The notes beneath the pieces are model-generated. The model did no database searches. It was not told the origin of the DNA and saw nothing but the letters and a program-made list of their open reading frames with translations. Positions 11,798 through 32,535 of a DNA stretch of 32,535 nt are shown here, piece by piece; the stretch's first letter is position 1, and the number at the start of each line of letters is the position of its first letter. The position numbers and the translations under genes are program-made. This DNA is from a virus (Duplodnaviria; Heunggongvirae; Uroviricota; Caudoviricetes). Location: the IMG/VR virus record IMGVR_UViG_2541047835_000006; one strand, 5' to 3'.

Positions 11798-12154
11798 TCA
11801 CACCCCGCGCAGGATGCGGATAACATCGCCTTCGGCCAGTGCTTCATCCAGCGCAATCCCGGCTGAAATACCTGCCGGGGTGTCGCCTGATGCTGCTGTC
11901 TGGGGAACGGCGCAGGCATTTGCATCCGACTGAACGTTCAGCCCCCTGGCAATCGCGGCACCGGCCTCGACGGCAACGATACCCAGTACGTTGACCGGCG
12001 TTACATCACCGGCAGCGGCATCCACCTCCGCCACGCCGAGCGCGACGGCTCCGGCCTGACAGGGGCCATTATCGGCACCGACAAAGCGCTGTTGCGTCAG
12101 CGCCGCGCTGGCCGTCACGGTAGTGGTCAGAATGACCTGCTGTGTTGTACCCAT
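11798..12154 (-). CDS. Small Ala/Gly-rich capsid-associated protein (possibly DUF2190-like)
   Basis: 118 aa directly downstream of major head gene; AAGGAGA SD. Confidence 0.5.
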   Translation of the reverse strand: MGTTQQVILTTTVTASAALTQQRFVGADNGPCQAGAVALGVAEVDAAAGDVTPVNVLGIVAVEAGAAIARGLNVQSDANACAVPQTAASGDTPAGISAGIALDEALAEGDVIRILRGV

Positions 12155-12164
12155 GACCGTCTCC

Positions 12165-13118
12165 TTATTTCACGATGTTGGTGACGAGATACCCGGCATC
12201 GCCACCGACCACGGCGACTTTGTAGATATCGGTATAACGGCAGTACTTCACCTTGCCGCCGACGCCGTCGTATTTATCCGCCACCGGCATCCCTTTACGG
12301 CGCAGGGTGTAGCCGAAGGACGGCTCGTTTTCGTCGGCGCTGTCGGTGCCCGGCTGGGGTTTGCCGACGTAATGCAGCATCAGGTTGTCGCCCCAGATAT
12401 CAGCCGGGACTTTGTCCTTGTTCTGCGCGTCTTTCATGGAGGCCATAGAGACCGGCTCGCCGATCACCACATCTTCCAACTGGAAAAGGTCTTTCAGAAT
12501 TTCGATGGTGATACGCTTGCGCTCGTTGGCTCCAATCGCGGCCTGAATCGCCGGGTGGAACTTCAGCAGCGACATGACGCTGGCCCCCATGGTCATCAGG
12601 TTTGGGCGCAGGCCGGTTTTGTTACGTACCGCCTCAATGCCACCTTCAATAATGCCAATTGGATCACCTTTACCACCGACCCAGCGTTCAGCAGCTGCCA
12701 GTGCTTTAACGGACGATGCCGGGTAAACGTTTTTGTCCTGCGCCAGACGGGCCGCATACAGTTCGCGCTTCAGGTTGACGCCACTGGTCACGCGACGAAT
12801 GGCCTTGGCCTCTTCGTTGAACATCGACTCCGCCTGCTCGCGGTAGTCCACCGGCGCGGCCAGATCGTGCTCGTTAAGAACCAGATCCAGTTTGCCGGTC
12901 TTCTCACGTACCAGGACGTTACTGTCAGCCCCCACGGCACGCTCGGTGTCGTACTCAACAAAGGCGGATTTACCGAAGGTCGGGACGGTCACACCTTCCT
13001 TATCGGTCTGGACAATGGGGAAGATGCGTTCGCCGATAAATGCGGCATTTTTATAACCGCGAGCGATGCTGGTCAGCACCGGGTCAACAACGCGCTTACC
13101 CTTTAAATAGTCAGACAT
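12165..13118 (-). CDS. Major head (capsid) protein, Mu T-like
   Basis: 317 aa, strong AAGGAGA SD, follows protease/scaffold gene as in Mu. Confidence 0.8.
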   Translation of the reverse strand: MSDYLKGKRVVDPVLTSIARGYKNAAFIGERIFPIVQTDKEGVTVPTFGKSAFVEYDTERAVGADSNVLVREKTGKLDLVLNEHDLAAPVDYREQAESMFNEEAKAIRRVTSGVNLKRELYAARLAQDKNVYPASSVKALAAAERWVGGKGDPIGIIEGGIEAVRNKTGLRPNLMTMGASVMSLLKFHPAIQAAIGANERKRITIEILKDLFQLEDVVIGEPVSMASMKDAQNKDKVPADIWGDNLMLHYVGKPQPGTDSADENEPSFGYTLRRKGMPVADKYDGVGGKVKYCRYTDIYKVAVVGGDAGYLVTNIVK

Positions 13119-16936: not shown

Positions 16937-18459
16937 CAGTAATCCTCCAGCATACGGGCCGCCTGACGACGACGGCGTGAGCTTGCCTTCACCGGCCCTT
17001 TGTTAATTTCACGACTGGCGAAGTACGCCAGCGCCAGTGCGATGGCTGAATCCCCGTGACGCTTGCCACTGTCAGACTTCGCTTTTGAGCGCTGTTCCGG
17101 CACGCGGGGAACGCCGTTTACCACCTGAACGGCCCGCAGGTCATCCAGCGTATCTTCATCCTTCGGTAAATCCACCAGGTTGCCATCTTCCAGCGCAGCC
17201 TTGACCGGCGGCATATGCTCGCGATACCAGTTTTCAGTTGGCATCACCTGCTTAACCCGGCTGGAGCCGTAGCGCTGCATGGCGTATTCGGCGAGGTAAG
17301 AGCCGTTACCACGGGCATCAAGCGCCGCGCCCATCAGGTTTGGCAGGCAATCCATCAGGTACCAGGCGATTTGCTCCTGCTGTTTGAACGGCACGTTGCG
17401 CAGCTCCAGCACGAACGGCACGCGGCGAACCAGGTTCTTCTCCTGCAGCAGGGGATAGTCCACCGACAGGTCACCGCTGCGGCCAAAGTCGCGACCCAGG
17501 AAAGAACGTGCGTCAGCGGGGAGCGCCTCCAGCAACGGTTTCAGATGTGTATCAAGCCACTCCTGCGTCTCGCTCCAGCGGACATCATCGGGCTTCAGCT
17601 CGTAACCCTCCGGGCAGGTCAGACGCAACACCGGCGTGCCAGCCGACATACGGGACTCAATCAGGGCGCGGGACAGCCAGGCTCCGCCACCGTTGGCCGG
17701 AACACAGTCAAGCTCCTCCGATGCACCGGCACCGTAGAATTTGTACACCGATGCCATCCACGCCTGCTCGGATGCTTCCGACCATTCTTTCCCGGTACGC
17801 AGGCAGACGCGGTGGAACAGCCCTTGGGACACAGCCTCCTGAAAAGTAATGCGATGTACGCTGCCCCCCTGACGCCCGGCCCGGATATCACCGATAAGCG
17901 TATTGAACGGGTTATCGTCACCGTCATGGGTGGAGATAACGCGCACTTTACCGCCCCAGATAAGCATCGCCAGCGCCGCCTTCAGCAGTTCGTCCAGTTG
18001 CTCATGGAACGCCGCTTCGTCGATAACGATGATGCCCTGACGGCCACGCAGGTTAGACGGACGGCTGGAGAGCGCGACAACGCGGAAGCCGGAGTCAGGG
18101 AATTTGATGGTGTAGGTCTTGATATGCTTGTCGTCTTCGTCCTCTTCCCAGAAACCCTCTTCGATTTCACTGGCAGCATAGTTGAATGCCCGCGCCCACA
18201 TCGCACACGCCTGGATATATTCGACGGTCATGTCCTGGTTATAGGCGATGTAATACACGTTCATCCCACCCGCAGGGGCTGAAGAGGCTGCGGTCAGCAC
18301 GTCATCGGACGCCTCAGCCCAGGTGATACCGGTTCGGCGGCTCTTCTCAATCACCTTGAGCGGAGACGTGTCAGCCACCCAGCGCTGCTGGTAGGGCATC
18401 AGAACGGCGGGGATATCCAGCGCCGAGGTGTCAGGCAAAACAGGAGCAAGCTGGCTCAT
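16936..18459 (-). CDS. Terminase large subunit
   Basis: 507 aa; nuclease-domain-like acidic segments; position upstream of portal. Confidence 0.85.
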   Translation of the reverse strand: MSQLAPVLPDTSALDIPAVLMPYQQRWVADTSPLKVIEKSRRTGITWAEASDDVLTAASSAPAGGMNVYYIAYNQDMTVEYIQACAMWARAFNYAASEIEEGFWEEDEDDKHIKTYTIKFPDSGFRVVALSSRPSNLRGRQGIIVIDEAAFHEQLDELLKAALAMLIWGGKVRVISTHDGDDNPFNTLIGDIRAGRQGGSVHRITFQEAVSQGLFHRVCLRTGKEWSEASEQAWMASVYKFYGAGASEELDCVPANGGGAWLSRALIESRMSAGTPVLRLTCPEGYELKPDDVRWSETQEWLDTHLKPLLEALPADARSFLGRDFGRSGDLSVDYPLLQEKNLVRRVPFVLELRNVPFKQQEQIAWYLMDCLPNLMGAALDARGNGSYLAEYAMQRYGSSRVKQVMPTENWYREHMPPVKAALEDGNLVDLPKDEDTLDDLRAVQVVNGVPRVPEQRSKAKSDSGKRHGDSAIALALAYFASREINKGPVKASSRRRRQAARMLEDY

Positions 18460-20287: not shown

Positions 20288-21014
20288 AGCTGCCGCCTCC
20301 CCAGGTGAGATAACGCGGGGCCAGTTCGTGCAGGATGCGCTGCGGATAATGACGGTTCTCCCGCCAGTTGGCAGTGCTGCGTCCGGCATTCACCGTGGCG
20401 ACATGACCAAACCAGCGGGTGCTGTCCAGCCCCTGCTGCGAGGCCAGCCGTTTGTCCCGCTGTACCCAGCCCAGACCACCGTTATAGCCTGACAGCGTCA
20501 TGGCCATACGCTCGCAGTCATTGACGGCGCTGACGCGTTGCCACAGCCAGCGGTCATAGCTGACCAGCGCCCGGATGGCCCAAGACGGATTAAACGGTTC
20601 ACGGCTGTTAAGCCCCGGCATCAGCTGACTTATCCAGTCAGCGGTGGTGGGCATAAACTGCGCCAGTCCCTGAGCGCCAACCGGCGAGACCGCATCAGGT
20701 CGCCAGCCGCTTTCCTGATGCAGCTGCGCGGCGAAGTCGGCCACCGGCGCAGACATTCCCCATTCAAGCCGGGCATTACGGATCACATCGTCGCGATACT
20801 GCAGCGCGGTCTGCGGTGGCTGGGCAGCGCGGGCCTGACTGAAGAAGCCGCCACACCAGAGCAGCCAGGCTACCGTTACTGAACCAAAGAGCTGCCACCA
20901 GAAACTGTGCTTACCCGTTCGGGCCTGCCCGTGGCGGGCCAGTTCGATGCCCAGCCCCAGCAGTACCAGCACGGCCCAGACAACCTGAGGCCAGTACATA
21001 TAGAGGGTCATCAT
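20277..21014 (-). CDS. Endolysin, lytic transglycosylase (SLT domain) with N-terminal TM/signal-anchor
   Basis: 245 aa; SLT signature ...LHQESGWRPDAVSPVGAQGLAQFMPTTA...; hydrophobic N-terminus (VVWAVLVLLGLGI). Confidence 0.8.
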   Translation of the reverse strand: MMTLYMYWPQVVWAVLVLLGLGIELARHGQARTGKHSFWWQLFGSVTVAWLLWCGGFFSQARAAQPPQTALQYRDDVIRNARLEWGMSAPVADFAAQLHQESGWRPDAVSPVGAQGLAQFMPTTADWISQLMPGLNSREPFNPSWAIRALVSYDRWLWQRVSAVNDCERMAMTLSGYNGGLGWVQRDKRLASQQGLDSTRWFGHVATVNAGRSTANWRENRHYPQRILHELAPRYLTWGGGSCVD

Positions 21015-21364
21015 TAAAGCCCCATCGCTACGGCCAGACAGACTGCAGCAACAATCAGCGCACGGCGGATTAGCGCAGCAGAAAAGACCAGGTGAAGGCC
21101 AGTCTGGACAGGGAAGCGACCATCAGCCATCAGCCTGTCATCATGCTTCAGGTACTGACCGGGACGGGCTTTGGGGAAAAGCGAACGGTCAAGCCAGTAG
21201 CCCAATACTGCCGCCAGCGTGATGAGTGATAGCTTGTAGACAACCACCGGCAGCTGCTGGGGCGATACCAGACCGATGGTGCCGAGCAGCAGCACAGCGG
21301 TCAGCAGCCAGCCGCTGAGACGTGGCTTTTTAACAGGGGGAATGAATTTTTTCAGGTTTTTCAT
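21014..21364 (-). CDS. Putative holin / membrane protein, first gene of late operon
   Basis: ATG 21364 with AAGGAGA SD; 2-3 predicted TM segments; immediately upstream of endolysin. Confidence 0.5.
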   Translation of the reverse strand: MKNLKKFIPPVKKPRLSGWLLTAVLLLGTIGLVSPQQLPVVVYKLSLITLAAVLGYWLDRSLFPKARPGQYLKHDDRLMADGRFPVQTGLHLVFSAALIRRALIVAAVCLAVAMGL

Positions 21365-21611
21365 GAGCGTCTCCTTGTGTAGTGGAGACAGCATCACAAA
21401 TGGTCGGGGAAAGGGATTTTAAACAGCGTTAATAGTGAGGATGCAGACGTGAACCGCATGATGGCTTTGAAAGAACGACCAGCCCGGTGCGGTAACACCA
21501 GGCTGGTCATCAACCCACAGGTATGCACTGTGAGCCGACCAGGGTTCAGTCAGTCTCGCGAGACCAGACTAGCCTGCCATATTTTCATTGATTGCAAAAG
21601 GCTTACGGATA
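21365..21611. promoter_or_regulatory. Divergent control region for late operon (minus) and methyltransferase (plus) with two palindromes
   Basis: Imperfect 32-bp dyad GACCAGCC-N16-GGCTGGTC at 21477..21508 and perfect 12-bp palindrome GTCTCGCGAGAC at 21553..21564; minus-strand -10-like TAAAAT at 21416..21421 lacking a good -35. Confidence 0.4.
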
Positions 21612-22382
21612 ATGAAAGAACAATCTTTACCCATCGTCCCATGGATTGGCGGTAAACGTCGTCTGGCGAAGCATATTTTACCATTGTTTCCGGCCCATAC
21701 CTGCTATGTGGAGCCATTCTGCGGGGCAGCTGCGCTCTATTTCCTAAAGACGCCCAGCAAGACCGAAGTCATTAACGATATCAACGGGGAACTGGTGAAC
21801 CTCTATCGGGTGGTCAAGCATCATCTGGAAGAATTTATTCGCCAGTTCAAATGGGCGCTGGTCAGCCGTCAGATTTACAAATGGTTGCAGGATACGCCGG
21901 AAGAAACGCTCACCGACATTCAGCGGGCGGCCCGGTTCTACTACCTGCAGAAACAGGCATTTGGCGGCAAGGTCGCCGATCACACATTCGGTACCTCTAC
22001 AACCAGTGCGCCGCGCTTCAATTTGCTGCGTATTGAGGAAGAACTGTCGATGGCACACCTGCGCCTGTCGAGAACGCTGATAGAGCATCTGGACTGGCAC
22101 CAGTGCATAGAGCGATATGATCGCCCGCATACGCTGTTCTACTGTGACCCACCGTACTGGGGAACGGAAGGCTATGGTGTGGAGTTCGGGCTGGAAAACT
22201 ATGATCACATGGCAGATTTAGCGCGAAGGATCAAAGGGAAGATGATTATATCAGTGAACGATATCCCGGAAATGCGGCAGGTATTCAACGGTCTGAACAT
22301 GCAGTCGGTTGATATCAGCTACAACCTTAAGGTAACAGGCAAACCCAGCCCGAAGAAAGAGCTGGTAATTTGTAATTTTTGA
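21612..22382 (+). CDS. DNA N6-adenine methyltransferase, Dam family (orphan; no restriction partner seen)
   Basis: Motifs PWIGGK (cf. Dam KWAGGK), EPFCGAAALYF, and catalytic YCDPPYWGT (DPPY); ATG 21612 preferred over upstream TTG 21588. Confidence 0.85.
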   Translation: MKEQSLPIVPWIGGKRRLAKHILPLFPAHTCYVEPFCGAAALYFLKTPSKTEVINDINGELVNLYRVVKHHLEEFIRQFKWALVSRQIYKWLQDTPEETLTDIQRAARFYYLQKQAFGGKVADHTFGTSTTSAPRFNLLRIEEELSMAHLRLSRTLIEHLDWHQCIERYDRPHTLFYCDPPYWGTEGYGVEFGLENYDHMADLARRIKGKMIISVNDIPEMRQVFNGLNMQSVDISYNLKVTGKPSPKKELVICNF

Positions 22383-22998: not shown

Positions 22999-23409
22999 TT
23001 AACCCGTATTTTTTAATCTTTCGAACGCTGCGGACAGCTCCTTAAGCTGTTTTTCCATATCAATCATTCGCTGTTTTTCCTCAGCGCCTCGCAGCAACTC
23101 TTTTCGCACCTCTGGCTCCAGTTGATTGAGCAGCTCCAATAACTTCAGATCAGACTGGTTGAAATGCTGCTCCTGATTAGCTGGCTGTGCTTTCTCTACC
23201 CCAACAGCTTCCCCTTTACCAGTAAGTAGCCAATCTATTGATATGTTCAAATGGGTGCTTAGCGCAACAAGAGCCTCTGCATTAGGTTCTCTCTCTCCAC
23301 GCAGATAGTTTTGAAGTGAGCGATATGGAATTTTTGACAAGTCTGACAATGCCTTAATTGTCAGACCCTTAGCATCCATCGCTTCGCGCAATCTCTCTTT
23401 TATACTCAT
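22999..23409 (-). CDS. Prophage repressor, XRE-family HTH with C-terminal coiled coil
   Basis: Start at ATG 23409 (MSIKERLREAMDAKGLTIKALSDLSKIPYRSLQNYLRGEREP...); divergent from early operon. Confidence 0.75.
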   Translation of the reverse strand: MSIKERLREAMDAKGLTIKALSDLSKIPYRSLQNYLRGEREPNAEALVALSTHLNISIDWLLTGKGEAVGVEKAQPANQEQHFNQSDLKLLELLNQLEPEVRKELLRGAEEKQRMIDMEKQLKELSAAFERLKNTG

Positions 23410-23425
23410 TTGAACATATCTCAAT

Positions 23426-23453
23426 TTGACATACCCGTTTGGGTGCGTACAAT
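23426..23453 (+). promoter_or_regulatory. Early promoter (sigma70-like) for ner-like/transposase operon
   Basis: TTGACA (23426..23431), 16-bp spacer, TACAAT (23448..23453); followed by repeated ACCCAA(T/C)AG motifs at ~23454 and ~23474 that may be operator sites. Confidence 0.55.
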
Positions 23454-23497
23454 AGACCCAATAGAGTACATCATAACCCAACAGGAACACGGTGCAT

Positions 23498-23722
23498 ATG
23501 AACAAACAACAAGTTCGGGCACGGCTGGTTGAAAGAGGCAGTAGCTTGCGCCAGTTCGCGCTTAACGCGGGCTATGAGCCACGAACAGTCACCCAGGCTG
23601 TCAGCCGCTGGGCAGGCAAAAGCGAACTTCCACGCGGTCGTTTGACTTATCGGATTTTGCGAGACCTTTCGGTCGCAATAGGCAAAGAAGTTACCCCCGG
23701 CATCCTCAAGGAGGCGTCATGA
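23498..23722 (+). CDS. Ner-like/Cro-like early DNA-binding regulator
   Basis: 74 aa; segment GSSLRQFALNAGYEPRTVTQAV resembles Ner/Nlp HTH; first gene of early operon, divergent from repressor. Confidence 0.6.
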   Translation: MNKQQVRARLVERGSSLRQFALNAGYEPRTVTQAVSRWAGKSELPRGRLTYRILRDLSVAIGKEVTPGILKEAS

Positions 23723-24024
23723 GTAAACCAAATACATCAAGCTCAGGTACCCGTATTTTGCGTGTCCTTAAGGCTTTACGCGGTCACGCTCTGAACGGTG
23801 TTTCTAACGGCGAGCTGGCGTCAGCTCTGGGCGAGTCCCCGGCGAATATCAATCGGGCGCTCAATACCCTTATCGAAGAAGGACTGGCCCTGAAACTGGA
23901 TAACGGGCGTTTTGCCCCAGGAGTCCAGCTCTTACAAATCGCCATGGCGCACAGTACCGAAATGGCGCGGGCGCAGGATCGTATCAATGAAATTAACCAG
24001 CGTGTTATGGCTGGTAGTCGCTAA
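23719..24024 (+). CDS. Winged-helix DNA-binding protein (IclR/MarR-like N-terminal HTH), function unknown
   Basis: 101 aa; ILRVLKAL...GVSNGELASALGESPANINRALNTLIEEGL; ATGA overlap with upstream gene; AAGGAGG SD. Confidence 0.5.
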   Translation: MSKPNTSSSGTRILRVLKALRGHALNGVSNGELASALGESPANINRALNTLIEEGLALKLDNGRFAPGVQLLQIAMAHSTEMARAQDRINEINQRVMAGSR

Positions 24025-24033
24025 GGAGTTGAA

Positions 24034-24942
24034 ATGGGACGCACAAAATCACAACCAGTTGAACTAGTGGAAGATGCACCGCTGACCGATGGTCTCAGTG
24101 TCAGTCTTAATGCTATGTCCGAACATCGCCTCGAAATCATGCAGCAGTTTGGTGATGGCTTGCCGTATGAACGTGATCGTATTGTCCATGAAACACGTTT
24201 TTATATGGCTCAGAGTGCTGAAGCCATGCTGGAGGCGGGTAAACGACTGGTAATTCTCAAAGAAAATGAACCACATGGTGACTTCATCGACATCGTTGAG
24301 TCTCAGTTGTCCCTATCCAAACGTACGGCGCAGGTGATGATGCAAGCATCCCTCAAATATTTGTCTCCCAAGCTTGAACCAAAAGCGCAAGCGCTTGCGC
24401 TTTTGGGTAAAACAAAGCTGTTTGAGTTGATGACGGAAGATGACGAAGACCTCGTCGAATTAGCCGATGGCGGCACGATTGCGGGTATGAGCCTCGATGA
24501 TATTGATCGCATGACAAGCCGCGAACTGAAAGCGGCCCTACGCGAAGCGCGTGAAACCAACGCAGCACAACAGCGCGTGCTTGCCGACAAAAACGAAAAA
24601 ATCGACTCGCTCTCCACAAAACTGGAGAAGAAATCCCGTATCCAGCCGCCCAAGCCTGACGAAGAGGTGAAGAAGCTGCGTGCGGAAGTTACAGCGTTAG
24701 CGGTTGAGGCGGAATCTGCCATCGCCGTTCGACTGTCCAGCGCCTTTGAGACCCTGTGCGCATACTGTGCTGAAAATATGATTGATACCCCCAGAGACTT
24801 TATGGCCGGTCTGGTCTGCCAGTTGGAAAGCACCGCGCGTAGCCTGCGCTCCACATTTGACCTGCCGGACGAGCCGACAGGCAACGCCGCCCCTTCATGG
24901 CTGACTGACCCGACGCCAGAGATTAACGGGCAGGAGGCATAA
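24034..24942 (+). CDS. Hypothetical protein with central coiled coil, upstream of transposase
   Basis: 302 aa; AAGGAG SD; no recognised catalytic motif. Confidence 0.5.
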   Translation: MGRTKSQPVELVEDAPLTDGLSVSLNAMSEHRLEIMQQFGDGLPYERDRIVHETRFYMAQSAEAMLEAGKRLVILKENEPHGDFIDIVESQLSLSKRTAQVMMQASLKYLSPKLEPKAQALALLGKTKLFELMTEDDEDLVELADGGTIAGMSLDDIDRMTSRELKAALREARETNAAQQRVLADKNEKIDSLSTKLEKKSRIQPPKPDEEVKKLRAEVTALAVEAESAIAVRLSSAFETLCAYCAENMIDTPRDFMAGLVCQLESTARSLRSTFDLPDEPTGNAAPSWLTDPTPEINGQEA

Positions 24943-24945
24943 CCC

Positions 24946-26715
24946 ATGAGTGCCGCCCTGACTGAACGACTGGTTTATGTTGCCCGCGCGGCACGTGACG
25001 CGGGGCATGGTAAGCGTGGTGCGATATATGATGCCGCCTGCGCCGAACTGGGCATTTCCCGCGCCACCCTGCTGCGCAAGCTGAAGGAGGTATCAGTGAC
25101 TGACAAACGCAAAAAACGCGCCGATGCCGGGCGCAGCGCCCTGACCCGCGACGAAGCCGCGCTGATATCTGCCACACTACGTGAGGCCACCCGCAAGAAC
25201 GGTAAGCGTCTCTATTCCATCGCGGATGCAGTGGAAACCCTGCGGGCTAACGGCTTTATCTCCGCAGGCAGAACAGATGAAACCACCGGTGAGTTTTTCC
25301 CGTTGTCCGAAGATGCCATCAGCCGAGCCCTGCGTAACTATGGCCTGCACCCGGAACAACTGGATGCCCCTGCACCACATACTGAAGTGGCCAGTCTGCA
25401 TCCCAATCATGTCTGGCAGATTGATGCCTCGCTCTGCACGCTTTACTACCTGAGCAATGGACATAAAGGGCTGCAGGTGATGGACAGCGCGAAGTTCTAC
25501 AAGAACAAGCCCGCTAACCTTGCCCGTATCGCCAGTGACCGCGTGTGGAGTTACGAGATTACCGACCATGCCAGCGGCTGGATTTACGTTGAGTATGTGA
25601 CGGGAGCGGAATCCGGTGAGAACCTGTGTTCTGTGCTTATCAACGCCATGCAGGAGCGTGGCGGCGCAGACGTGCTGCACGGTGTGCCGAAAATACTCTA
25701 TCTCGACCCCGGCTCGGCAAACACCGCGGGTATGACGAAAAACATGTGTCGCTCACTGGGCATCGACCTGATAGCGCACAAGCCGCATAACGCCCGCGCC
25801 ACCGGACAGGTGGAAAAGGCGCGAGACATTATCGAACGCAAGCTGGAGCCGGGTCTGAAGTTCCGGCCGGTTCACAGTCTGGAAGAACTCAACGCGCTGG
25901 CCGCGAAATGGCGCAGCCACTTTAACGCAACAGCTGTTCACAGCCGCCACGGTAAAACCCGCACGGATATCTGGCTGAAGATTACTGCTGAGCAGTTGAA
26001 AAAAGCGCCTTCCGTTGAGGTTTGCCGTGAACTGGCTGTGGCAGCACCAGAACTCCGCAAAGTCACGCCAAAACTTCGTGTCTCGTTCCGGGGCACTGAA
26101 TTTGACGTATCAACGGTACCGGGCGTACTGGTCGGTGAAAAACTGATGATTACCCGTAACCCGTGGCGCAGCGATGTGGCACAGGTGGTTCTGACCGGTG
26201 AGGACGGCCACGAGACGTTCTTCCTGGTCGAAGAGGTCAGAAAGAACGAGTTTGGCTTTGCTGAAGGCGCGGCAGTATTTGGCGAAAGTTACAAAGCCCT
26301 GCCGGAAACCCCGGCGCAGATGGCGGCAAAAGAAACCGAAGCGCTGGTCACCGGTACAGACAACGCCGCAGATGCAGCTGCCGCACGCAAGGCGAAGGCG
26401 CTGCCGTTCGGCGGGCGGCTTGACCCGTATAAACATATCGACGACACCACACTTCCGGCCTATATGCCGAAGCGTGGTCAGGCCTCTGACGTACGCGGGC
26501 CGCGCACTGAACAACGTCCCATGACTCATGTGGAGGCCGCGAAAGCCCTGCGCGATAAGTTCAGCGCCGACGGCCTTACCTGGACGCCGGAACATTACCG
26601 CCAGTTAACGGCACAGTACCCGGACGGCGTACCGGAAGCCGCACTGGATGAAGTCATGGCCACGCTGACCACACCGGCCAGCAGCAGTGTTATCAGCATT
26701 GTTAACGGCAACTGA
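24946..26715 (+). CDS. DDE transposase (Mu A-like role; rve/TnsB-like catalytic core)
   Basis: 589 aa; N-terminal HTH; candidate D160 (HVWQID), D254 (LYLDPG), E290 (GQVEKA); AGGAGG SD; followed by AAA+ ATPase gene. Confidence 0.85.
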   Translation: MSAALTERLVYVARAARDAGHGKRGAIYDAACAELGISRATLLRKLKEVSVTDKRKKRADAGRSALTRDEAALISATLREATRKNGKRLYSIADAVETLRANGFISAGRTDETTGEFFPLSEDAISRALRNYGLHPEQLDAPAPHTEVASLHPNHVWQIDASLCTLYYLSNGHKGLQVMDSAKFYKNKPANLARIASDRVWSYEITDHASGWIYVEYVTGAESGENLCSVLINAMQERGGADVLHGVPKILYLDPGSANTAGMTKNMCRSLGIDLIAHKPHNARATGQVEKARDIIERKLEPGLKFRPVHSLEELNALAAKWRSHFNATAVHSRHGKTRTDIWLKITAEQLKKAPSVEVCRELAVAAPELRKVTPKLRVSFRGTEFDVSTVPGVLVGEKLMITRNPWRSDVAQVVLTGEDGHETFFLVEEVRKNEFGFAEGAAVFGESYKALPETPAQMAAKETEALVTGTDNAADAAAARKAKALPFGGRLDPYKHIDDTTLPAYMPKRGQASDVRGPRTEQRPMTHVEAAKALRDKFSADGLTWTPEHYRQLTAQYPDGVPEAALDEVMATLTTPASSSVISIVNGN

Positions 26716-26725
26716 GGAGGGAAAC

Positions 26726-27892
26726 ATGCTGGTACTGAAGCAGCAACTGAAAGAGGCCCGTATTCCACAGGCGGTGGTGGCGAGAGCTGTCGATGTTTCT
26801 GAGGCCACGCTGGCCCAGATTGTGAATCATAACGCGTGGCCCCGCACCAGTCCCGGAGAAGTACGCCGGCGTCTTGCGTCCTGGCTGGAAAGTCAGGGGA
26901 TTGATACAACGAAGAGTTTTGATGCTGTACAGGGCGCGGCCACGCCCCGTACAGCGGGTACCACAGATAAAACGAGCCTCAGTGAGGAAGAGAATATGTT
27001 ACTCAAAAAACAGGTGTTATTTCCAGCAACCAAAAAAGCGTTTGGTCTTTTCCGTGACCCGTTCGCCGACGAAGCCATGCAGGGTTCTGATGATGTGTTC
27101 ACCACCCCGGACATCCGCTATGTGCGTGAGGCGCTGTACCAGACAGCCCGTCATGGTGGATTTATGGCCGTCATCGGTGAGTCCGGTGCGGGTAAATCCA
27201 CGCTGCGCCGCGACCTGACTGAACGTATCAACCGCGAGAATGCGCCGGTAATTGTTATCGAGCCATATGTCATCGCCATGGAAGACAACGATGTGAAAGG
27301 GAAAACCCTGAAGGCAGCAGCGATTGCCGAAGCCATTATCAGTACCATCGCACCACTGGAAAGCATCAGACGCAGTCAGGATGCCCGCTTTCGCCAGCTG
27401 CATCGCGTCCTGAAAGACAGCAGCCAGGCGGGGTTCAGCCACGTTCTGGTGATTGAGGAGGCCCACAGCCTGCCCATTCCGACACTGAAACACCTCAAAC
27501 GCTTTTTTGAGCTGGAGTCCGGTTTCAAAAAACTGCTGTCCATCGTGCTGATTGGCCAGCCGGAACTGGCGACAAAACTGTCTGAACGCAATATGGAAGT
27601 CCGTGAAGTCGTTCAGCGCTGTGAGGTGGTCGAACTTCTGCCTCTCGACAATAACCTTGAAGAGTTTCTGACGTTCAAACTGCAACGGGCCGGTAAACAA
27701 CTGACGGACATTATGGACGCCGGCGCAGTGGATGCCATACGTGCCCGCCTGAGCAATCCGGGAAGTCACCGTAAAAACAGGGTCAGCCTGCTGTATCCGC
27801 TGGCCGTCAGTAACCTGGTAATAGCCGCCATGAATCTGGCCGCTGAAATCGGGGTTCCACAGGTCAACGCTGACGTTGTCAAAGGGGTTTAA
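26726..27892 (+). CDS. Transposition ATPase (Mu B-like role; AAA+ with N-terminal HTH)
   Basis: Walker A GESGAGKST, Walker B-like VLVIEEAH; ATG 26726 with GGAGG SD, just after transposase stop. Confidence 0.8.
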   Translation: MLVLKQQLKEARIPQAVVARAVDVSEATLAQIVNHNAWPRTSPGEVRRRLASWLESQGIDTTKSFDAVQGAATPRTAGTTDKTSLSEEENMLLKKQVLFPATKKAFGLFRDPFADEAMQGSDDVFTTPDIRYVREALYQTARHGGFMAVIGESGAGKSTLRRDLTERINRENAPVIVIEPYVIAMEDNDVKGKTLKAAAIAEAIISTIAPLESIRRSQDARFRQLHRVLKDSSQAGFSHVLVIEEAHSLPIPTLKHLKRFFELESGFKKLLSIVLIGQPELATKLSERNMEVREVVQRCEVVELLPLDNNLEEFLTFKLQRAGKQLTDIMDAGAVDAIRARLSNPGSHRKNRVSLLYPLAVSNLVIAAMNLAAEIGVPQVNADVVKGV

Positions 27893-27894
27893 TA

Positions 27895-28164
27895 ATGAAA
27901 TCCATCACAGGTATCAACCAGCAAATCAGCAAAGTGCAGTCAGCCATTATGGCGCTTATGGCGACGAACACGGATGTACAAAGCATCACCATCAGGGGCA
28001 ATAAACCGGTCATCCGCGTTTCCCGGAGTGCGCATTGCATGCGCATGCTTGAACAGGGGAAAGCCAGTTATCTGTATACCGGTCATGACCACAGGGGACA
28101 TTTCCGTCAGGGCGTTTTCGAACTGCACGGCTGTCGCGTCGTGTGGCCGGAATCTTTGTGGTAA
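27895..28164 (+). CDS. Small hypothetical protein at the position of Mu kil
   Basis: 89 aa; starts 2 nt after B-like stop. Confidence 0.45.
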   Translation: MKSITGINQQISKVQSAIMALMATNTDVQSITIRGNKPVIRVSRSAHCMRMLEQGKASYLYTGHDHRGHFRQGVFELHGCRVVWPESLW

Positions 28165-28191
28165 TCAGCACAACCGGAGAAATCATAAAAT

Positions 28192-28722
28192 ATGGCAAAA
28201 AGTACAAAAGGGGCAAAACGTATCAAGTCCGCAGCGGCACTCTGGGTACCGGGGACACGCGAAGAGGTCATTGAGGGCATCAGACTGCTCGGTGACGCAC
28301 AACGTGAACTGGTCAGGGCTGAAACAGAAATGAATGACGCCATTGGCGATATCACCGCACGTTATGCCCCGCTCACCGAGAGCCTGAAAAAACGCATGTC
28401 AGAACTGCAGTCCGGTATCCAGACATGGTGTGAGGCACACCGTGATGAACTGACCGGCAACGGGAAGGTGAAGTTCGCTAACCTCACCACCGGCGAGGTG
28501 CAGTGGCGAAACCGTCCGCCATCAGTCAGTATCCGTGGAGCGGATAATGTTATTGAACTACTGAGACGTCTGGGGCTTGAGCGCTTTATTCGTGTAAAAG
28601 AGGAAATAAATAAAGATGCCATTCTGAATGAAAAAGAGGCCGTGAAAAATATTCCCGGCATTACCATAAAAAGTGATATTGAGGATTTTTCAATAATTCC
28701 TTTTGAGCAGGATGTGCAGTAA
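28192..28722 (+). CDS. gam: Host-nuclease inhibitor Gam (Mu Gam family)
   Basis: 176 aa; recalled similarity to Mu Gam including RIKSAAA..., ETEMNDAI, RPPSVSIRG and C-terminal IEDFSIIPFEQ. Confidence 0.8.
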   Translation: MAKSTKGAKRIKSAAALWVPGTREEVIEGIRLLGDAQRELVRAETEMNDAIGDITARYAPLTESLKKRMSELQSGIQTWCEAHRDELTGNGKVKFANLTTGEVQWRNRPPSVSIRGADNVIELLRRLGLERFIRVKEEINKDAILNEKEAVKNIPGITIKSDIEDFSIIPFEQDVQ

Positions 28723-28819
28723 ACACACCACGTTAATTATTTAATAAAAACATTTTCTTTTTTATTCCGGCGTCAGCGCCGTGGGCTTCTGCACGCCGGA
28801 AACAGAGGAGAATTAAATT

Positions 28820-29014
28820 ATGATATTTAAATGTATTCAGTGCGAGAGGGATATAACAGCCCTGCGTTTTCACAGCGCCATCGCCGTGATGTCCGGTAAA
28901 TACCACGTACCTGCAGTACGCGTCACCCTGGTCTGTCCGTACTGCAGTCAGCATTTTTCGGCAGATGTGCCCGTTATGGAATTCTCCCGCCCTGACAGGG
29001 AGGAAGCGCAATGA
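28820..29014 (+). CDS. Small zinc-ribbon-like protein (CxxC...CxxC)
   Basis: 64 aa; CIQCERD and CPYCSQ pairs; AGAGGAG SD; preceded by AT-rich spacer with hairpin. Confidence 0.45.
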   Translation: MIFKCIQCERDITALRFHSAIAVMSGKYHVPAVRVTLVCPYCSQHFSADVPVMEFSRPDREEAQ

Positions 29015-29283
29015 TTACCCCACAGGAAGCACATCAGCGCACCCGCGCCCTTGTTGAACGGTATCTCAACGAGTGTGAATGCCGTGACCTCACCGATATC
29101 ATGTGCGCCCTGACGGCGTTAATCAGCATGGCCACGCAGGCCATTGTAGCGACTAACGGAAAGGAGGCCGCCCTGCAGATACTAGTGAACACACTCACCC
29201 ACGCGGCAGAGCACGAGGTGCCGTACCGGATGGAAATCACTGCAGAAGGCGACCTGCACATCATTGTTGACCGGAAGCACTGA
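29011..29283 (+). CDS. Hypothetical protein
   Basis: 90 aa; GGGAGGAAG SD; ATGA overlap. Confidence 0.45.
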   Translation: MITPQEAHQRTRALVERYLNECECRDLTDIMCALTALISMATQAIVATNGKEAALQILVNTLTHAAEHEVPYRMEITAEGDLHIIVDRKH

Positions 29284-29292
29284 GGGCGCGGT

Positions 29293-29595
29293 ATGACACG
29301 GAACACCGTACACACCCGCGCCGCCCTCTACCGTCTGGCCCTGCAGCGTTTCGGTCCGGATGCACAGGCCCTGAAACTGACAGAAGAGGCCGCTGAACTG
29401 GCGGCCAGTGCTGCCCGCAACCTGAACGGACAGGGCAGCGAAAGTGACCTCGCGGCAGAGCTGGCAGACGTGGAAATCATGACAGAGCAGCTGCGCCTTC
29501 AGGGGATGGACCGGCTGATTGACTTCCACAAACAGAAAAAACTGGAACGCCTTGCCGCACGGCTGGGCGTCACATACACCGGAGAAATCATATGA
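29293..29595 (+). CDS. MazG-like nucleotide pyrophosphohydrolase (all-alpha NTP-PPase family)
   Basis: 100 aa; acidic motifs LTEEAAELAAS and ELADVEIMTEQ consistent with E-E-x-x-E ... E-x-x-D metal-binding pattern. Confidence 0.5.
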   Translation: MTRNTVHTRAALYRLALQRFGPDAQALKLTEEAAELAASAARNLNGQGSESDLAAELADVEIMTEQLRLQGMDRLIDFHKQKKLERLAARLGVTYTGEII

Positions 29596-29975
29596 ACCGC
29601 ACCGAACAGACGCCACAACTGACGCTGGAAGATGCTGCACAGCGTATTCAGGTACTGGAAGACGAAAACGAATACCTGCGCAAGAGATTTGAAGAGGTGG
29701 ACCTGTACTTCGGGCGCAATCTGGTCGTCATGAAAGCTGCAGTGATTGAGTGGCGGGCCACCGGTGATGCCAGGAACGGCATGGCGTGGATTTACAACAC
29801 CCTGTGTGGGCCGGGCGAACTGCCTCCGCAAGAGGAGAAAGAGGCACAGGAATACTTCAACAGGGAAACTGAAGTTATCGACAGAAAACTGGCTGCCCTG
29901 TACCACTGGTTCAGGAAATACCACAGGACACACGCCGCACCTGACCAGACCACCACAGGAGGTACCAGTGACTGA
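29592..29975 (+). CDS. Hypothetical protein with N-terminal coiled coil
   Basis: 127 aa; ATATGA overlap with upstream gene. Confidence 0.5.
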   Translation: MNRTEQTPQLTLEDAAQRIQVLEDENEYLRKRFEEVDLYFGRNLVVMKAAVIEWRATGDARNGMAWIYNTLCGPGELPPQEEKEAQEYFNRETEVIDRKLAALYHWFRKYHRTHAAPDQTTTGGTSD

Positions 29976-30183
29976 CACCATTATGGAAATTGTGGTATGG
30001 GCTTTCCTGCTTACTGGTATAGCCGTGTGCATCTGCGCCGGATTCGCCCTGGTTGCCCTGCTGACCCACGTGGTGACGCAGTGGTTATGGGAAAAGCTTA
30101 AAGCAGCATACAGCCTGAAAGAGCTGTCCGACGCTGTTCGGGCATGGGAACAGCAAAAAAATACCGGAGATACTGAACAATGA
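29968..30183 (+). CDS. Small membrane protein (one TM helix)
   Basis: GTG 29968 preceded by AGGAGG at ideal spacing; TM VVWAFLLTGIAVCICAGFALVALL. Confidence 0.4.
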   Translation: MTDTIMEIVVWAFLLTGIAVCICAGFALVALLTHVVTQWLWEKLKAAYSLKELSDAVRAWEQQKNTGDTEQ

Positions 30184-30863
30184 CAGACCAGGATAAGCAC
30201 ATTGAGAAACTGAAAAAGTTGCTGGCGCTGGCAGCATCCGGCAACCCGCATGAGGCTGCTCTGGCACTGCGCCGCGCCCGTAAACTGATGGATGTTCACG
30301 GCATCACACATTCCGACATCGCCATGAGTGATATTGATGAAACCATCAGTCACTACTGGCCGACAGGCAGCCTCCGTCCGCCGCGCTACATGCTGGGCCT
30401 GATGAACATCATCCGCGAGGCATTTGGTGTTAACTCCATCATTCACCCCGGCACATATCCGGGTGTGGGGTTCTACGGCAACCGGGAACGGGCCGCACTG
30501 GCCGCGTACACCTGGGAAGTGCTGGCCCGTCAGCTGAAAAAGGCGCGTCAGCAGTATATCAGTGCACAGAACAAAAGAATAAAAACCGCCACCCGCACCA
30601 GCCGTGGAGACCAGTTTGCTGAAGGCTGGGTGCTGGCCGTTATCAGTGAAATACAGTCCTTCGCCTTGACCGATGACGAACGTGAACTGATGCAGCAGTG
30701 GCTGGAACATAAATACCCGCAGACGCAAACCACCAGGGCGCGTAAACCGGGAAGAAGTCGCAATGGCGACGCCTCGCGCTATGCGGGGTTTCGAGAAGGG
30801 CAGAACGTCAGACTGCACCGACCGGTCAGTGGGCGGGAACAGCAGAAACTGGAGGCCAGATGA
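30180..30863 (+). CDS. Hypothetical protein (DUF2786-like N-terminus)
   Basis: 227 aa; N-terminal KLLALAASGNPHEAALALRRARKLM motif; ATGA overlap. Confidence 0.5.
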   Translation: MTDQDKHIEKLKKLLALAASGNPHEAALALRRARKLMDVHGITHSDIAMSDIDETISHYWPTGSLRPPRYMLGLMNIIREAFGVNSIIHPGTYPGVGFYGNRERAALAAYTWEVLARQLKKARQQYISAQNKRIKTATRTSRGDQFAEGWVLAVISEIQSFALTDDERELMQQWLEHKYPQTQTTRARKPGRSRNGDASRYAGFREGQNVRLHRPVSGREQQKLEAR

Positions 30864-31090
30864 TTACGTTATCAGGTAACAGCCGGAAATTAAAAGCCTG
30901 CCGAATATCTGCCAGATACCTTTTTGCCCGCGCCTTTTTTAAGAACGTCAGGCCGGGGATCACAATTGGTGTTATTGCCGGACGCGAACAGGTTGAAAAA
31001 TACATGTCAGGTGCATGGTGGAATAACGACCCTGTCATTGCTGCCCGTAATATTCATATCAGTTGGGGGGATATTCAGAATGACGGCTGA
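30860..31090 (+). CDS. Hypothetical protein
   Basis: 76 aa; GGAGG SD; ATGA overlap. Confidence 0.4.
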   Translation: MITLSGNSRKLKACRISARYLFARAFFKNVRPGITIGVIAGREQVEKYMSGAWWNNDPVIAARNIHISWGDIQNDG

Positions 31091-31295
31091 ATCTGTTGTA
31101 TGTGCCCTGTTCTGGTATTGTTTTGTCGGTTGGTGTACTGCTGAACTGCACCGCCGTTCAGGGTTTTATTCACGTTACAGTGGTGCCGGCTACTGGATTA
31201 GCTGGTCGGTGATGTTCCTGTGCTGGCCTGTGGCGCTTCCTTTATATGTCGATTATATCGGTGGCGCAGGTAAAAGGAGCAACGATGATGACTAA
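31080..31295 (+). CDS. Small membrane protein (two TM helices, Trp/Cys-rich)
   Basis: ATG 31080 within longer ORF; VVCALFWYCFVGWC ... WISWSVMFLCWPVALPLYV. Confidence 0.4.
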   Translation: MTAESVVCALFWYCFVGWCTAELHRRSGFYSRYSGAGYWISWSVMFLCWPVALPLYVDYIGGAGKRSNDDD

Positions 31296-31737
31296 ACAAC
31301 GTCTTATCCAGCTCATTCATATTGCCCGTAATGAACTGGGTATGGATGAAGACACCTACCGCCAGATGTTACAGGGGCTGACCGGTAAAGCCTCAACCAA
31401 AGGAATGGATACCACACAACTAAACTGCGTGCTGGAATCCATGAAAAGGAAAGGCTTTCGCGTTAAGCCTGCCAGAAAAGCCAGCTCCGGTTTACCGCTG
31501 GATAACCATCCGCAGTCCAGGAAAATCCGTGCGCTATGGCTTGAAATGGCTGCTGCCGGCATTGTTCGTGACCGTTCAGAAAATGCATTAGCGCGGTGGA
31601 TCAAGCGGGAAACGGGCATCAGCGCCCTGCGCTGGCTCAATACTGAACAGGCAAGTAGTGTTATTGAGAAACTGAAGAAGTGGCAGCGCAGAGCTGCGGG
31701 AGTAAAACATGAGCGACCTGAATCAGTTTCGAAGTAA
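31285..31737 (+). CDS. GemA/gp16-like regulatory protein (Mu GemA position)
   Basis: ATG 31285 with AAGGAG SD; about 150 aa, immediately upstream of and overlapping mor. Confidence 0.6.
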   Translation: MMTKQRLIQLIHIARNELGMDEDTYRQMLQGLTGKASTKGMDTTQLNCVLESMKRKGFRVKPARKASSGLPLDNHPQSRKIRALWLEMAAAGIVRDRSENALARWIKRETGISALRWLNTEQASSVIEKLKKWQRRAAGVKHERPESVSK

Positions 31738-32098
31738 AGGGCCGGAACTCCTGGTGGAACTGGCACAGCATACCTCTGAGACCGTTCGCGAGATTATTGA
31801 TATTGAGCCCGCAATTGCCGACCAGATTGGTCAGGCCGTCGCGAACCGCATGATGCAGGTCTGGGGCGGGCAAAACGTTTATTTCCCGATGGGCATGGTA
31901 TGGAAGGTCAGTCAGCGCGACCGGGAAATCTTCAGGGGGTTTAACGGACGTAACCACCATGAACTGGCCCGCAAATTTGGTGTTTCGCTTCAGTGGGTCT
32001 ACAGCGTGGTTAAGCGGGTAAGAAAAGAAGAACTGGATCGGATGCAGGGCAAGCTATTTGCTGATGAACCCGATGTAGATACGGAGAAAAAAGAGTAA
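31709..32098 (+). CDS. mor: Mor/C-family transcriptional activator (middle operon regulator)
   Basis: 129 aa; C-terminal HTH region FRGFNGRNHHELARKFGVSLQWVYSVVKRVRK resembles Mu Mor. Confidence 0.8.
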   Translation: MSDLNQFRSKGPELLVELAQHTSETVREIIDIEPAIADQIGQAVANRMMQVWGGQNVYFPMGMVWKVSQRDREIFRGFNGRNHHELARKFGVSLQWVYSVVKRVRKEELDRMQGKLFADEPDVDTEKKE

Positions 32099-32133
32099 TA
32101 TCTGCAATCAGGCTGGCGCGAGTTCTGTTTTTG

Positions 32134-32535
<402 letters not shown>

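Follow-up and report, generated by a model that had tools for sequence, protein, structure and literature searches.

Organisation of the early operon

The window (the whole stretch of DNA that was analysed, 32,535 nucleotides) represents a BcepMu-like transposable prophage that is carried by 640 of 5426 complete E. coli genomes (~12%), has ST131 among its hosts and is widespread in successful lineages. A cI-type repressor gene on the minus strand (HTH_3/CI match) is followed on the plus strand by an HTH gene, an rve transposase gene (Pfam E-value 9.9e-9), the AAA+ gene B (AAA_22, 2.7e-20), Gam (Mu Gam, 5.5e-41), the cluster under study, gemA (31288-31737, plus strand; GemA, 6.5e-41) as the penultimate gene and mor (31709-32098, plus strand; Mor, 1e-42) as the last. 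The co-orientation of rve, B, Gam, GemA and Mor, the divergent repressor and the variable insertion sites, which in other genomes lie in or adjoin emrA, ycaL, an SDR gene and yhfW, identify this as the early operon of a Mu-like transposable phage. The late genes diverge from the early genes in the window, in the fashion of BcepMu, whereas in Mu the two are collinear. Escherichia phage PhiKM, assigned to Bcepmuvirus in its record, matches a 2.3-kb probe with 95% DNA identity across 72% of the probe, and this identity together with the BcepMu-type layout places the prophage in the genus Bcepmuvirus, as judged from a comparison of the early region alone.

Between Gam and gemA, on the plus strand, lie ORF1 (29968..30183; 71 aa, GTG start), ORF2 (30180..30863; 227 aa), ORF3 (30860..31090; 76 aa) and ORF4 (31080..31295; 71 aa), preceded by a 127-aa upstream ORF (ORF0; 29592..29975, plus strand). 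An earlier note on this DNA had called the same four ORFs, and they coincide with RefSeq/PGAP CDSs of an E. coli locus that has 99.3% identity; all four match PHROG families (5e-15 to 8.5e-76). The early-operon context that the note had relied on for its strand assignment is also borne out, as the cluster sits between Gam and GemA/Mor on the same strand as the transposase and B. Each gene overlaps the next: ORF0 and ORF1 by 8 nt, ORF1 and ORF2 by an ATGA of 4 nt, ORF2 and ORF3 likewise by a 4-nt ATGA, ORF3 and ORF4 by 11 nt, and the last 8 nt of ORF4 are also the first 8 nt of gemA. Good Shine-Dalgarno sites, which had been claimed for all four, are present as strong sites for ORF1 (AGGAGG, 5 nt 5' of GTG 29968) and ORF3 (GGAGG, 4 nt spacing) and as a moderate one for ORF2 (GGAG, ~11 nt spacing); ORF4 has only a weak run of G.

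A promoter and terminator scan of 27800-32535 stayed at or below shuffle expectation, with no plus-strand promoter-like site between 27800 and 32100, and an Rfam scan of 27800-32535 gave no matches. The promoter and terminator of their own that mark lambdoid morons are thus absent from the four ORFs, which are therefore not classic morons. [quoted passage not shown] The Fc02 homologue of ORF2 sits within that ner-to-mor arm. The gene packing in the window and the behaviour of this distant relative point to a single transcription unit; once the repressor is inactivated, the four genes would be expressed from a polycistronic early transcript, following transposase, B and Gam and directly ahead of GemA and Mor.

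Coding strand of the cluster

The longest ORF of the region is an antisense frame of 439 aa (29499-30818, minus strand). The earlier note had described a long antisense ORF over the whole cluster and had regarded its translation as a finding that would overturn the strand assignment; the ORF exists and covers ORF1 and ORF2, but ORF3 and ORF4 lie outside it. Antisense translation was tested by substitution patterns and rejected, and the plus strand is correct. If the 439-aa frame were the true gene, with ORF1 and ORF2 as its shadows, its length would be accounted for, and the lack of TTA, CTA and TCA in 354 sense codons is indeed improbable by chance (~0.007, given how the remaining early genes use codons). 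However, the frame has a pN/pS of 2.46 among E. coli alleles (25.5 non-synonymous vs 3.5 synonymous changes) and of 1.2 against Salmonella, it carries 6 stops in the Salmonella homologue, in which ORF2 is intact, and it is shortened wherever ORF0 or ORF1 is missing. In the sense direction ORF2 has a pN/pS of 0.08, its variable columns fall 5/4/31 on codon positions 1/2/3, it matches two Pfam families, and its homologues reach down to 34% identity. At other places in the window, structural genes have comparable antisense ORFs of 327-363 aa on their opposite strand. The codons TTA, CTA and TCA, whose reverse complements are stops, are wholly absent from ORF0 and ORF2, and it is for want of these codons in the sense genes that the antisense frame is open. 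We therefore give virtually no credence to the 439-aa ORF as a gene.

A second antisense ORF of 70 aa (30826..31038, minus strand), opposite ORF3, is not conserved; the wobble positions of its frame coincide with those of ORF3, and over the ORF3 region this frame has 5 stops in two other loci (L015 and L021) vs 2 in the window. ORF3 itself has a pN/pS of 0.26-0.33 (against its Mixta, Intestinirhabdus, P22-like and Flyfo homologues) and ORF4 one of 0.20 (against Salmonella). An N-terminally extended ORF4, starting from TTG 30924 and 123 aa long, was considered and rejected, as that frame has a pN/pS of 1.76 across ORF3. Purifying selection is weak in ORF1 (0.46), and the antisense frame there has 0.61 and zero stops; the case for its translation is thus carried mainly by the ribosome-binding site, the coupling and the conserved hydrophobicity.

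The four proteins and their families

ORF2 encodes a soluble protein of pI 10.1. Its DUF2786-like N-terminus, as it had been described, scores 43.0 bits against DUF2786 (gathering threshold 23.9; E 4.4e-11; residues 8-44, profile 3-40 of 40), and the following part matches DUF7168 (PF23771) at 91.3 bits (gathering 25.5; E 5.5e-26; residues 46-189, profile 2-139 of 140). By these profile matches ORF2 is a full member of the DUF2786 (PF10979) and DUF7168 family, beyond a mere likeness. The family corresponds to phrog_421. Pseudomonas phages of the D3112-like and B3-like types and Mu-like phages of Ralstonia encode homologues that equal ORF2 in length and architecture, and in those D3112-like and B3-like loci that were examined the homologues stand 5' of gemA/mor. 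ORF2 cannot be told apart from the other members of the family. Among 80 DUF2786 loci from diverse Proteobacteria, all outside E. coli, GemA follows in 60 and Mor is present in 51; ORF4 occurs in 17, ORF3 in 2 and ORF1 in none. Alpha-, Beta- and Gammaproteobacteria have DUF2786/DUF7168 proteins in their Mu-like prophages, and unrelated virulent and Gram-positive phages encode them too, so that the role of ORF2 is not necessarily tied to transposition or to GemA/Mor; BcepMu and Mu lack such a protein.

The AF2 model of ORF2 is good, with no solved relative and at most a weak KH-like sub-fold. PDB searches with single sequences and profiles of ORF2, ORF3 and ORF4 returned no relative, the best matches (T4 lysozyme, E 0.23; a de novo protein, E 0.2) both being noise, and for the DUF2786/DUF7168 family we found neither a solved structure nor literature. 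A type I KH domain was rejected, as there is one helix instead of two, no GXXG loop and no Pfam KH match; the structural match spans ~30% of ORF2 and is a resemblance, not membership. The protein is predicted to have a helical hairpin at its N-terminus and a KH-like alpha/beta core. A basic loop (NKRIK-x3-T-x5-D-F-E-G-W) is conserved, as is the C-terminal tail, which is modelled with low confidence; residues K135, D144, E148 and W150 are invariant. Our best guess, a tentative one, is that ORF2 may lack enzymatic activity, bind nucleic acid or protein and help early lytic development.

ORF4 had been described as a Trp/Cys-rich protein with two transmembrane segments, and this holds: it contains 5 Trp and 4 Cys, and its two segments (residues ~5-22 and 38-57) have Wimley-White octanol values of -6 and -14 kcal/mol, with two favourable segments recurring in all five variants tested. 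Its two E. coli alleles are 41% identical, and the conserved motif reads FWY..VGW..AELHR..G..(S)RY.G ... WP.ALPL.VD. The 17 loci that carry it all belong to Enterobacterales and place it invariably immediately 5' of GemA; a profile search of 1.84 billion representative proteins retrieved 15 cluster representatives only and no distant relatives. ORF4 would form a two-TM hairpin in the inner membrane, translationally coupled to gemA, with its conserved positively charged loop predicted from charge rules to face the cytoplasm.

The single transmembrane segment ascribed to ORF1 is likewise supported (Kyte-Doolittle 19-residue mean up to 2.63, residues ~4-36), and it is followed by a charged, helical C-terminal tail; flanking charges suggest an N-out/C-in topology. 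ORF1 and ORF4 thus each have a conserved hydrophobic segment of spanning length and are predicted to insert as integral membrane proteins. The possibility that ORF1 is a lipoprotein was discarded by inspection, given the lack of a basic n-region and a poor lipobox (residues IAVC and LATC up to the Cys). Neither membrane protein is a plausible holin or lysis-cassette protein: the prophage holin (21014-21397, minus strand; PF13272 at 1.5e-41) lies in the late region, and ORF1 and ORF4 are in the early operon and match no holin family. Among phage records only PhiKM has ORF1. The upstream ORF0 shares homology with lambdoid Ea22-like proteins over their C-terminal domain and occurs in 6 of the 5426 E. 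coli genomes, where it travels together with the rare ORF1 allele of the window; it matches a PADLOC model labelled 'DpdH', which looks like a wrong label.

ORF3 (pI 10.3, soluble, phrog_3681) is predicted to consist of three helices, although its AF2 model is poor (pLDDT 63), and has a highly conserved core, YLFARAFFKNVRPGI-IGVIAGREQV-YMSGAWWNNDPV. Its homologues lie in the ea region of a Lederbergvirus (P22-like) and in a siphovirus; ORF3 would be a small basic helical protein that lambdoid ea regions also carry. None of the four ORFs matches NCBIfam, a PADLOC-DB model at E up to 0.1 or any known anti-CRISPR or defence-related model, and searches of the literature for the four families (DUF2786, DUF7168, Pfam and PHROG accessions, WP numbers) found no functional studies.

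A probable accessory region of the early operon

In our view the region is likely to form the distal, accessory end of the early operon in a BcepMu-like transposable prophage and to be composed of real plus-strand genes that are independent modules. This level of confidence applies to the anatomy and does not extend to the biochemical guesses. The region would be the functional counterpart of the semi-essential early (SEE) region of Mu between gam and gemA (kil ... gam ... gp11-gp15), with which it shares position and logic: small, packed, mostly uncharacterised genes 3' of transposase, B and Gam and 5' of GemA and Mor. The gene content is different, as Mu gp11-gp14 have other Pfam content and match neither DUF2786 and DUF7168 nor ORF1, ORF3 and ORF4; a tblastn of all window ORFs against a Mu locus (L005) recovered Gam, GemA and Mor and nothing else, and the translated Mu proteins have no obvious hydrophobic segments. 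BcepMu gp03-gp07 are not homologous to the four ORFs either. Pseudomonas Mu-like phages have regions of genomic plasticity with variably present ORFs of 34-100 codons in the early arm (Cazares et al. 2014, PMC4378225). The genes in the cluster resemble these ORFs in their horizontal exchange and mostly unknown function, and ORF3 and the Ea22-like ORF0 recur in P22-like or Stx/lambdoid phages, within their ea regions.

The earlier note had grouped the genes as one cluster in which two membrane proteins flank a DUF2786 gene. As a unit, this cluster does not stand: the genes differ in distribution, ORF1 is missing in some copies and the alleles recombine. A single functional system, for instance a membrane-anchored complex in which the small TM proteins bring the DUF2786 protein to the inner membrane, would fit the tight coupling and the order fixed in ~615 E. 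coli genomes, and in a crude scan 24 of 61 loci had small hydrophobic ORFs in the interval from DUF2786 to GemA. Against it, ORF1 and ORF3 scarcely accompany DUF2786 in the 80 loci, ORF4 is confined to Enterobacterales, Salmonella-type prophages pass from DUF2786 directly to ORF4 with neither ORF1 nor ORF3, one E. coli copy (L013) lacks ORF1, and there are phages with ORF3 that lack ORF1, ORF2 and ORF4. The alleles of ORF1 and ORF4 also assort independently, with the combinations A/A, B/B, B/A and none/A among seven loci sampled, and the window's ORF1 allele is found in 6 genomes vs 208 for its ORF4 allele. We therefore regard one system as very unlikely; a pairwise partnership of ORF2 with ORF4, or of ORF4 with GemA, may exist. 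Since genes and alleles assort independently, the region is a mosaic accessory region and not a unit, and the proteins would act as four independent modules.

Within this mosaic, ORF1 might be a non-functional open frame born of recombination at the junction between the Ea22-like module and resident sequence. The window's allele is a chimera with its GTG start inside the preceding gene, the gene is limited to E. coli copies, and its pN/pS is not clearly better than that of the antisense frame. We nevertheless find this improbable, as both alleles keep the frame, the 71-aa length and a strongly hydrophobic N-terminus in spite of 47% identity in the TM part (17/36), 33 of the 35 C-terminal residues are identical between them, each has a start of its own, with a strong Shine-Dalgarno site in the window's allele, and ORF1 has a PHROG family of its own (phrog_3958, 5.4e-38). 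Our preferred reading is that ORF1 is a dispensable single-pass membrane protein. A little less doubtful, but still unlikely, is that ORF1, ORF4 or both are lysogenic-conversion factors, expressed from the prophage for superinfection exclusion or immunity and not as early lytic genes. The success of the lineages that carry the prophage, such as ST131, would be in keeping with this, and exclusion of other phages by small membrane proteins does occur among Mu-like phages, in the case of olg1 and gene 10 of Fc02 (PMC9936078). The Fc02 exclusion genes, however, adjoin the repressor, whereas ORF1 and ORF4 are embedded by stop/start overlaps in the middle of an early operon that is under repression and whose start lies more than 6 kb away, and have no plus-strand promoter-like site nearby. 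For the small membrane proteins the earlier note had suggested host killing, exclusion or anti-defence, which is a reasonable analogy. By analogy, host targets would be the most likely point of action for all three small proteins (ORF1, ORF3 and ORF4) in the early lytic phase, in takeover, exclusion of competitor phages or counter-defence.

Hundreds of genomes already list the four genes as hypothetical proteins, existing Pfam and PHROG families include them, and they do not constitute a new system. The region is an ordinary one of low discovery value, and the outcomes are practical: the strand question is closed, and the supposed cluster is a mosaic of independently moving genes. There is a small chance that at least one of the DUF2786/DUF7168 and ORF4 families has a specific, previously undescribed activity, for instance as a new class of phage nucleic-acid-binding helper of replication or transposition, or as a new membrane factor of host takeover or exclusion that works with GemA. 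ORF2 and ORF4 are conserved, tractable targets among the dark early genes of this BcepMu-like prophage.

Position of the four genes in the prophage

The window contains a transposable prophage. Its late genes occupy positions ~1 to 21400 of the minus strand, with the holin gene at 21014-21397, and a cI-type repressor gene (22999-23505, minus strand) is divergent from an early operon on the plus strand (~23719 to 32098). The operon comprises genes for an HTH protein, a DUF3102 protein, an rve transposase, an AAA+ B protein and Gam, several small genes, and gemA and mor. Over the 2.3 kb around the four ORFs studied here, ORF1-ORF4, its sequence shares 95% identity with Escherichia phage PhiKM, which is recorded under the genus Bcepmuvirus; 640 of 5426 complete E. 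coli genomes match this region, and the chromosomal insertion site differs in every prophage copy examined. This gene layout and the identity of the prophage make ORF1-ORF4 the final stretch of the early operon ahead of gemA and mor, the positional counterpart of the semi-essential early region of Mu. Between Gam and ORF1-ORF4, the plus strand encodes a 64-aa CxxC...CxxC zinc-ribbon protein (28820-29014, phrog_3401), a 90-aa protein (29011-29283, phrog_3691) and a 100-aa fragment of a MazG-like NTP pyrophosphohydrolase (29293-29595, phrog_2245).

Outside this operon, a lone D12-class N6-adenine DNA methyltransferase gene (21588-22382, plus strand; PF02086, 1.2e-27) separates the late lysis genes from the repressor region, and is plausibly an anti-restriction or lysogenic-conversion gene. 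Directly past the prophage end lies a host ORF (32275-32535, plus strand), whose product would correspond to the C-terminal two-thirds of the Nudix CTP pyrophosphohydrolase NudG of E. coli; if this is true, this prophage copy is inserted in nudG and truncates the gene.

Gene calls and coding strand

ORF1 (29968-30183, 71 aa, GTG start), ORF2 (30180-30863, 227 aa), ORF3 (30860-31090, 76 aa) and ORF4 (31080-31295, 71 aa), all on the plus strand, are identical to PGAP coding sequences in a 99.3%-identical genome, which bears out the coordinates proposed in the earlier note, and they overlap each other and the flanking genes by 4-11 nt. The good Shine-Dalgarno sites claimed for all four are strong for ORF1 and ORF3 and moderate for ORF2, but weak for ORF4.

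The long antisense ORF covering this region had left the strand assignment dependent on operon context and ribosome-binding sites, and substitution patterns together with stops in the antisense frame now resolve it in favour of the plus strand. The 439-aa antisense frame (29499-30818, minus strand) is genuinely open and complements, codon for codon, both ORF2 and an upstream 127-aa ORF (29592-29975, plus strand); it is open because these two lack TTA, CTA and TCA codons. Antisense ORFs of 327-363 aa also lie on the plus strand opposite minus-strand structural genes (9551-10642, 12123-13106, 17215-18282), which shows that the 439-aa frame is part of a general property of this GC-rich prophage. 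Among E. coli copies of ORF2, the variable alignment columns fall 5/4/31 at codon positions 1/2/3, and pN/pS is 0.08 in the plus frame vs 2.46 in the antisense frame. In the Salmonella-type homologue (~64% protein identity) the plus ORF is intact, whereas the antisense frame carries six stops, and we therefore reject the antisense ORF as a gene. The frame of a 70-aa antisense ORF opposite ORF3 is broken in relatives. The pN/pS of ORF3 is 0.26-0.33 against four homologues, with synonymous sites saturated, and that of ORF4 is 0.20 against Salmonella. ORF1 is the weakest coding case (pN/pS 0.46 vs 0.61 in the wobble-sharing antisense frame); its two alleles nevertheless agree in length and frame, and both have a hydrophobic N-terminal segment, in which only 17/36 residues are identical.

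Features of the encoded proteins

PHROG families exist for all four ORFs; PADLOC and NCBIfam gave no match for any of them, and nor did the PDB for the three proteins searched (ORF2, ORF3 and ORF4). The membrane character attributed to the two outer proteins holds. ORF1 has one unambiguous TM segment, probably in an N-out/C-in topology with a charged helical cytoplasmic tail. ORF4 has two clearly favourable Wimley-White segments, as do four divergent homologues; the abundance of Trp, Tyr and Cys in its hydrophobic stretches keeps it under the usual Kyte-Doolittle cut-off. Conservation in ORF4 is highest where TM1 ends and in the basic loop (GW..AELHR..G..RY.G), which would be cytoplasmic by the positive-inside rule, and at WP.ALP in TM2. 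The family is narrow and comprises 26 clusters when grouped at 90% identity and, at 50% identity, 15 representatives among 1.84 billion proteins. E. coli carries two ORF4 alleles that are 41% identical (31080-31295 here; 3535-3741 in comparison locus L011); the ST131/PhiKM-type protein has 68 aa and ends in KKRR rather than NDDD, and the LHR and WPV.LP motifs and the two-TM layout are common to both. Proteins that are in conflict with a variable target often diversify in this way at a conserved locus.

The DUF2786-like N-terminus noted for ORF2 was substantiated, as the protein scores above the gathering thresholds for DUF2786 as well as DUF7168. The family is large. Homologues of this length that have both domains are encoded by D3112-like and B3-like Pseudomonas phages and by Ralstonia Mu-like phages; structure-level relatives are found in Sinorhizobium phiM12, Delftia PhiW-14, Bacillus SP-15, mycobacteriophages and Gordonia phages. 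In contrast, the family is absent from Mu and BcepMu, and BcepMu has SSB and HU genes at this position. The AF2 model is confident (pLDDT 86, pTM 0.77) and has a beta-alpha-beta-beta-alpha core, with DUF2786 forming a two-helix hairpin and the C-terminal part being helical. The C-terminal tail (residues ~205-227; 30810-30860) is conserved yet modelled with low confidence (pLDDT 42-53), and L212, G218 and Q221 are nearly invariant among 24 homologues (consensus V.LH.PV.GQEQ.KL), which suggests a short linear motif recognised by a partner protein. Literature searches returned no paper on the DUF2786/DUF7168 family; we lean, with low confidence, towards non-enzymatic binding of nucleic acid or a partner.

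The ORF3 protein is small (8.5 kDa), basic and very conserved, and its predicted model is too poor for interpretation. A P22-like Salmonella phage has a homologue in its ea region, which lies between erf/ssb and int (locus L094, 2971-3192), and an unrelated bat-gut siphovirus has another (locus L095, 3022-3219). The sharing of this family (phrog_3681) by a Mu-like early operon and these phages shows gene traffic between early accessory regions of unrelated temperate phages.

The upstream 127-aa ORF, which overlaps the ORF1 start with its stop codon, matches PADLOC model PDLC02890, labelled 'DpdH', at all 127 positions (5e-90). However, tblastn identifies it as the C-terminal domain of lambdoid 'ead/Ea22-like' proteins, with 55-59% identity to 933W L0069 and many Stx phages, and the PADLOC model looks mislabelled or like a contaminant.

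Distribution, mosaicism and proposed role

Every gene of the region was used as a query against 80 loci that encode relatives of ORF2 and were taken from species-representative genomes. GemA, downstream on the same strand, was matched in 60 and Mor in 51, ORF4 in 17, ORF3 in two, and ORF1 and the upstream 127-aa ORF in none. The ORF2-type gene sits upstream of gemA/mor in the loci examined in detail. All 17 ORF4 loci are from Enterobacterales, always with gemA next downstream, and in the loci checked the ORF4 stop overlaps the gemA start; Salmonella-type prophages have the order DUF2786, ORF4, gemA with nothing between. The zinc-ribbon and MazG-like genes are kept beside DUF2786 in 18-19 of the 80 loci.

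Within E. coli, some prophage copies lack ORF1, and two alleles exist for both ORF1 and ORF4, occurring in all sampled combinations. The ORF4 allele seen here occurs in 208 genomes, and the ORF1 allele with its upstream ORF in only 6 of 5426. This ORF1 allele is a chimera, in which the first ~36 codons (29968-30075, the TM segment) are 47% identical to the common allele and are found together with the Ea22-like ORF, whereas resident sequence makes up the last 35 codons. The C-terminal half is nearly invariant between the two alleles. This two-part structure indicates a recombination junction inside the gene, with TM segment and frame nonetheless preserved. These differing distributions and the reshuffling do not support the view of the four genes as a unit. 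The pattern matches the core-plus-accessory organisation reported for Mu-like phages of Pseudomonas (PMC4378225).

In the B3-like phage Fc02, strand-specific RNA-seq showed the entire ner-to-mor operon to be on within 10 min of repressor inactivation, and according to the authors the ORFs of this operon are for the most part unassigned accessory genes (PMC9936078). Local scans of 27800-32535 revealed no internal promoter or terminator above chance, which together with the tight coupling of the genes makes it most likely that the ORF1-ORF4 proteins would be produced jointly, early in lytic growth. By analogy, they may serve host takeover, exclusion or counter-defence. The observation made in the earlier note thus stands, and its interpretation does so for the genes, their strand and their membrane character but not for the four genes as a unit. 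ORF1-ORF4 are an ordinary accessory segment, already catalogued, of a common prophage.
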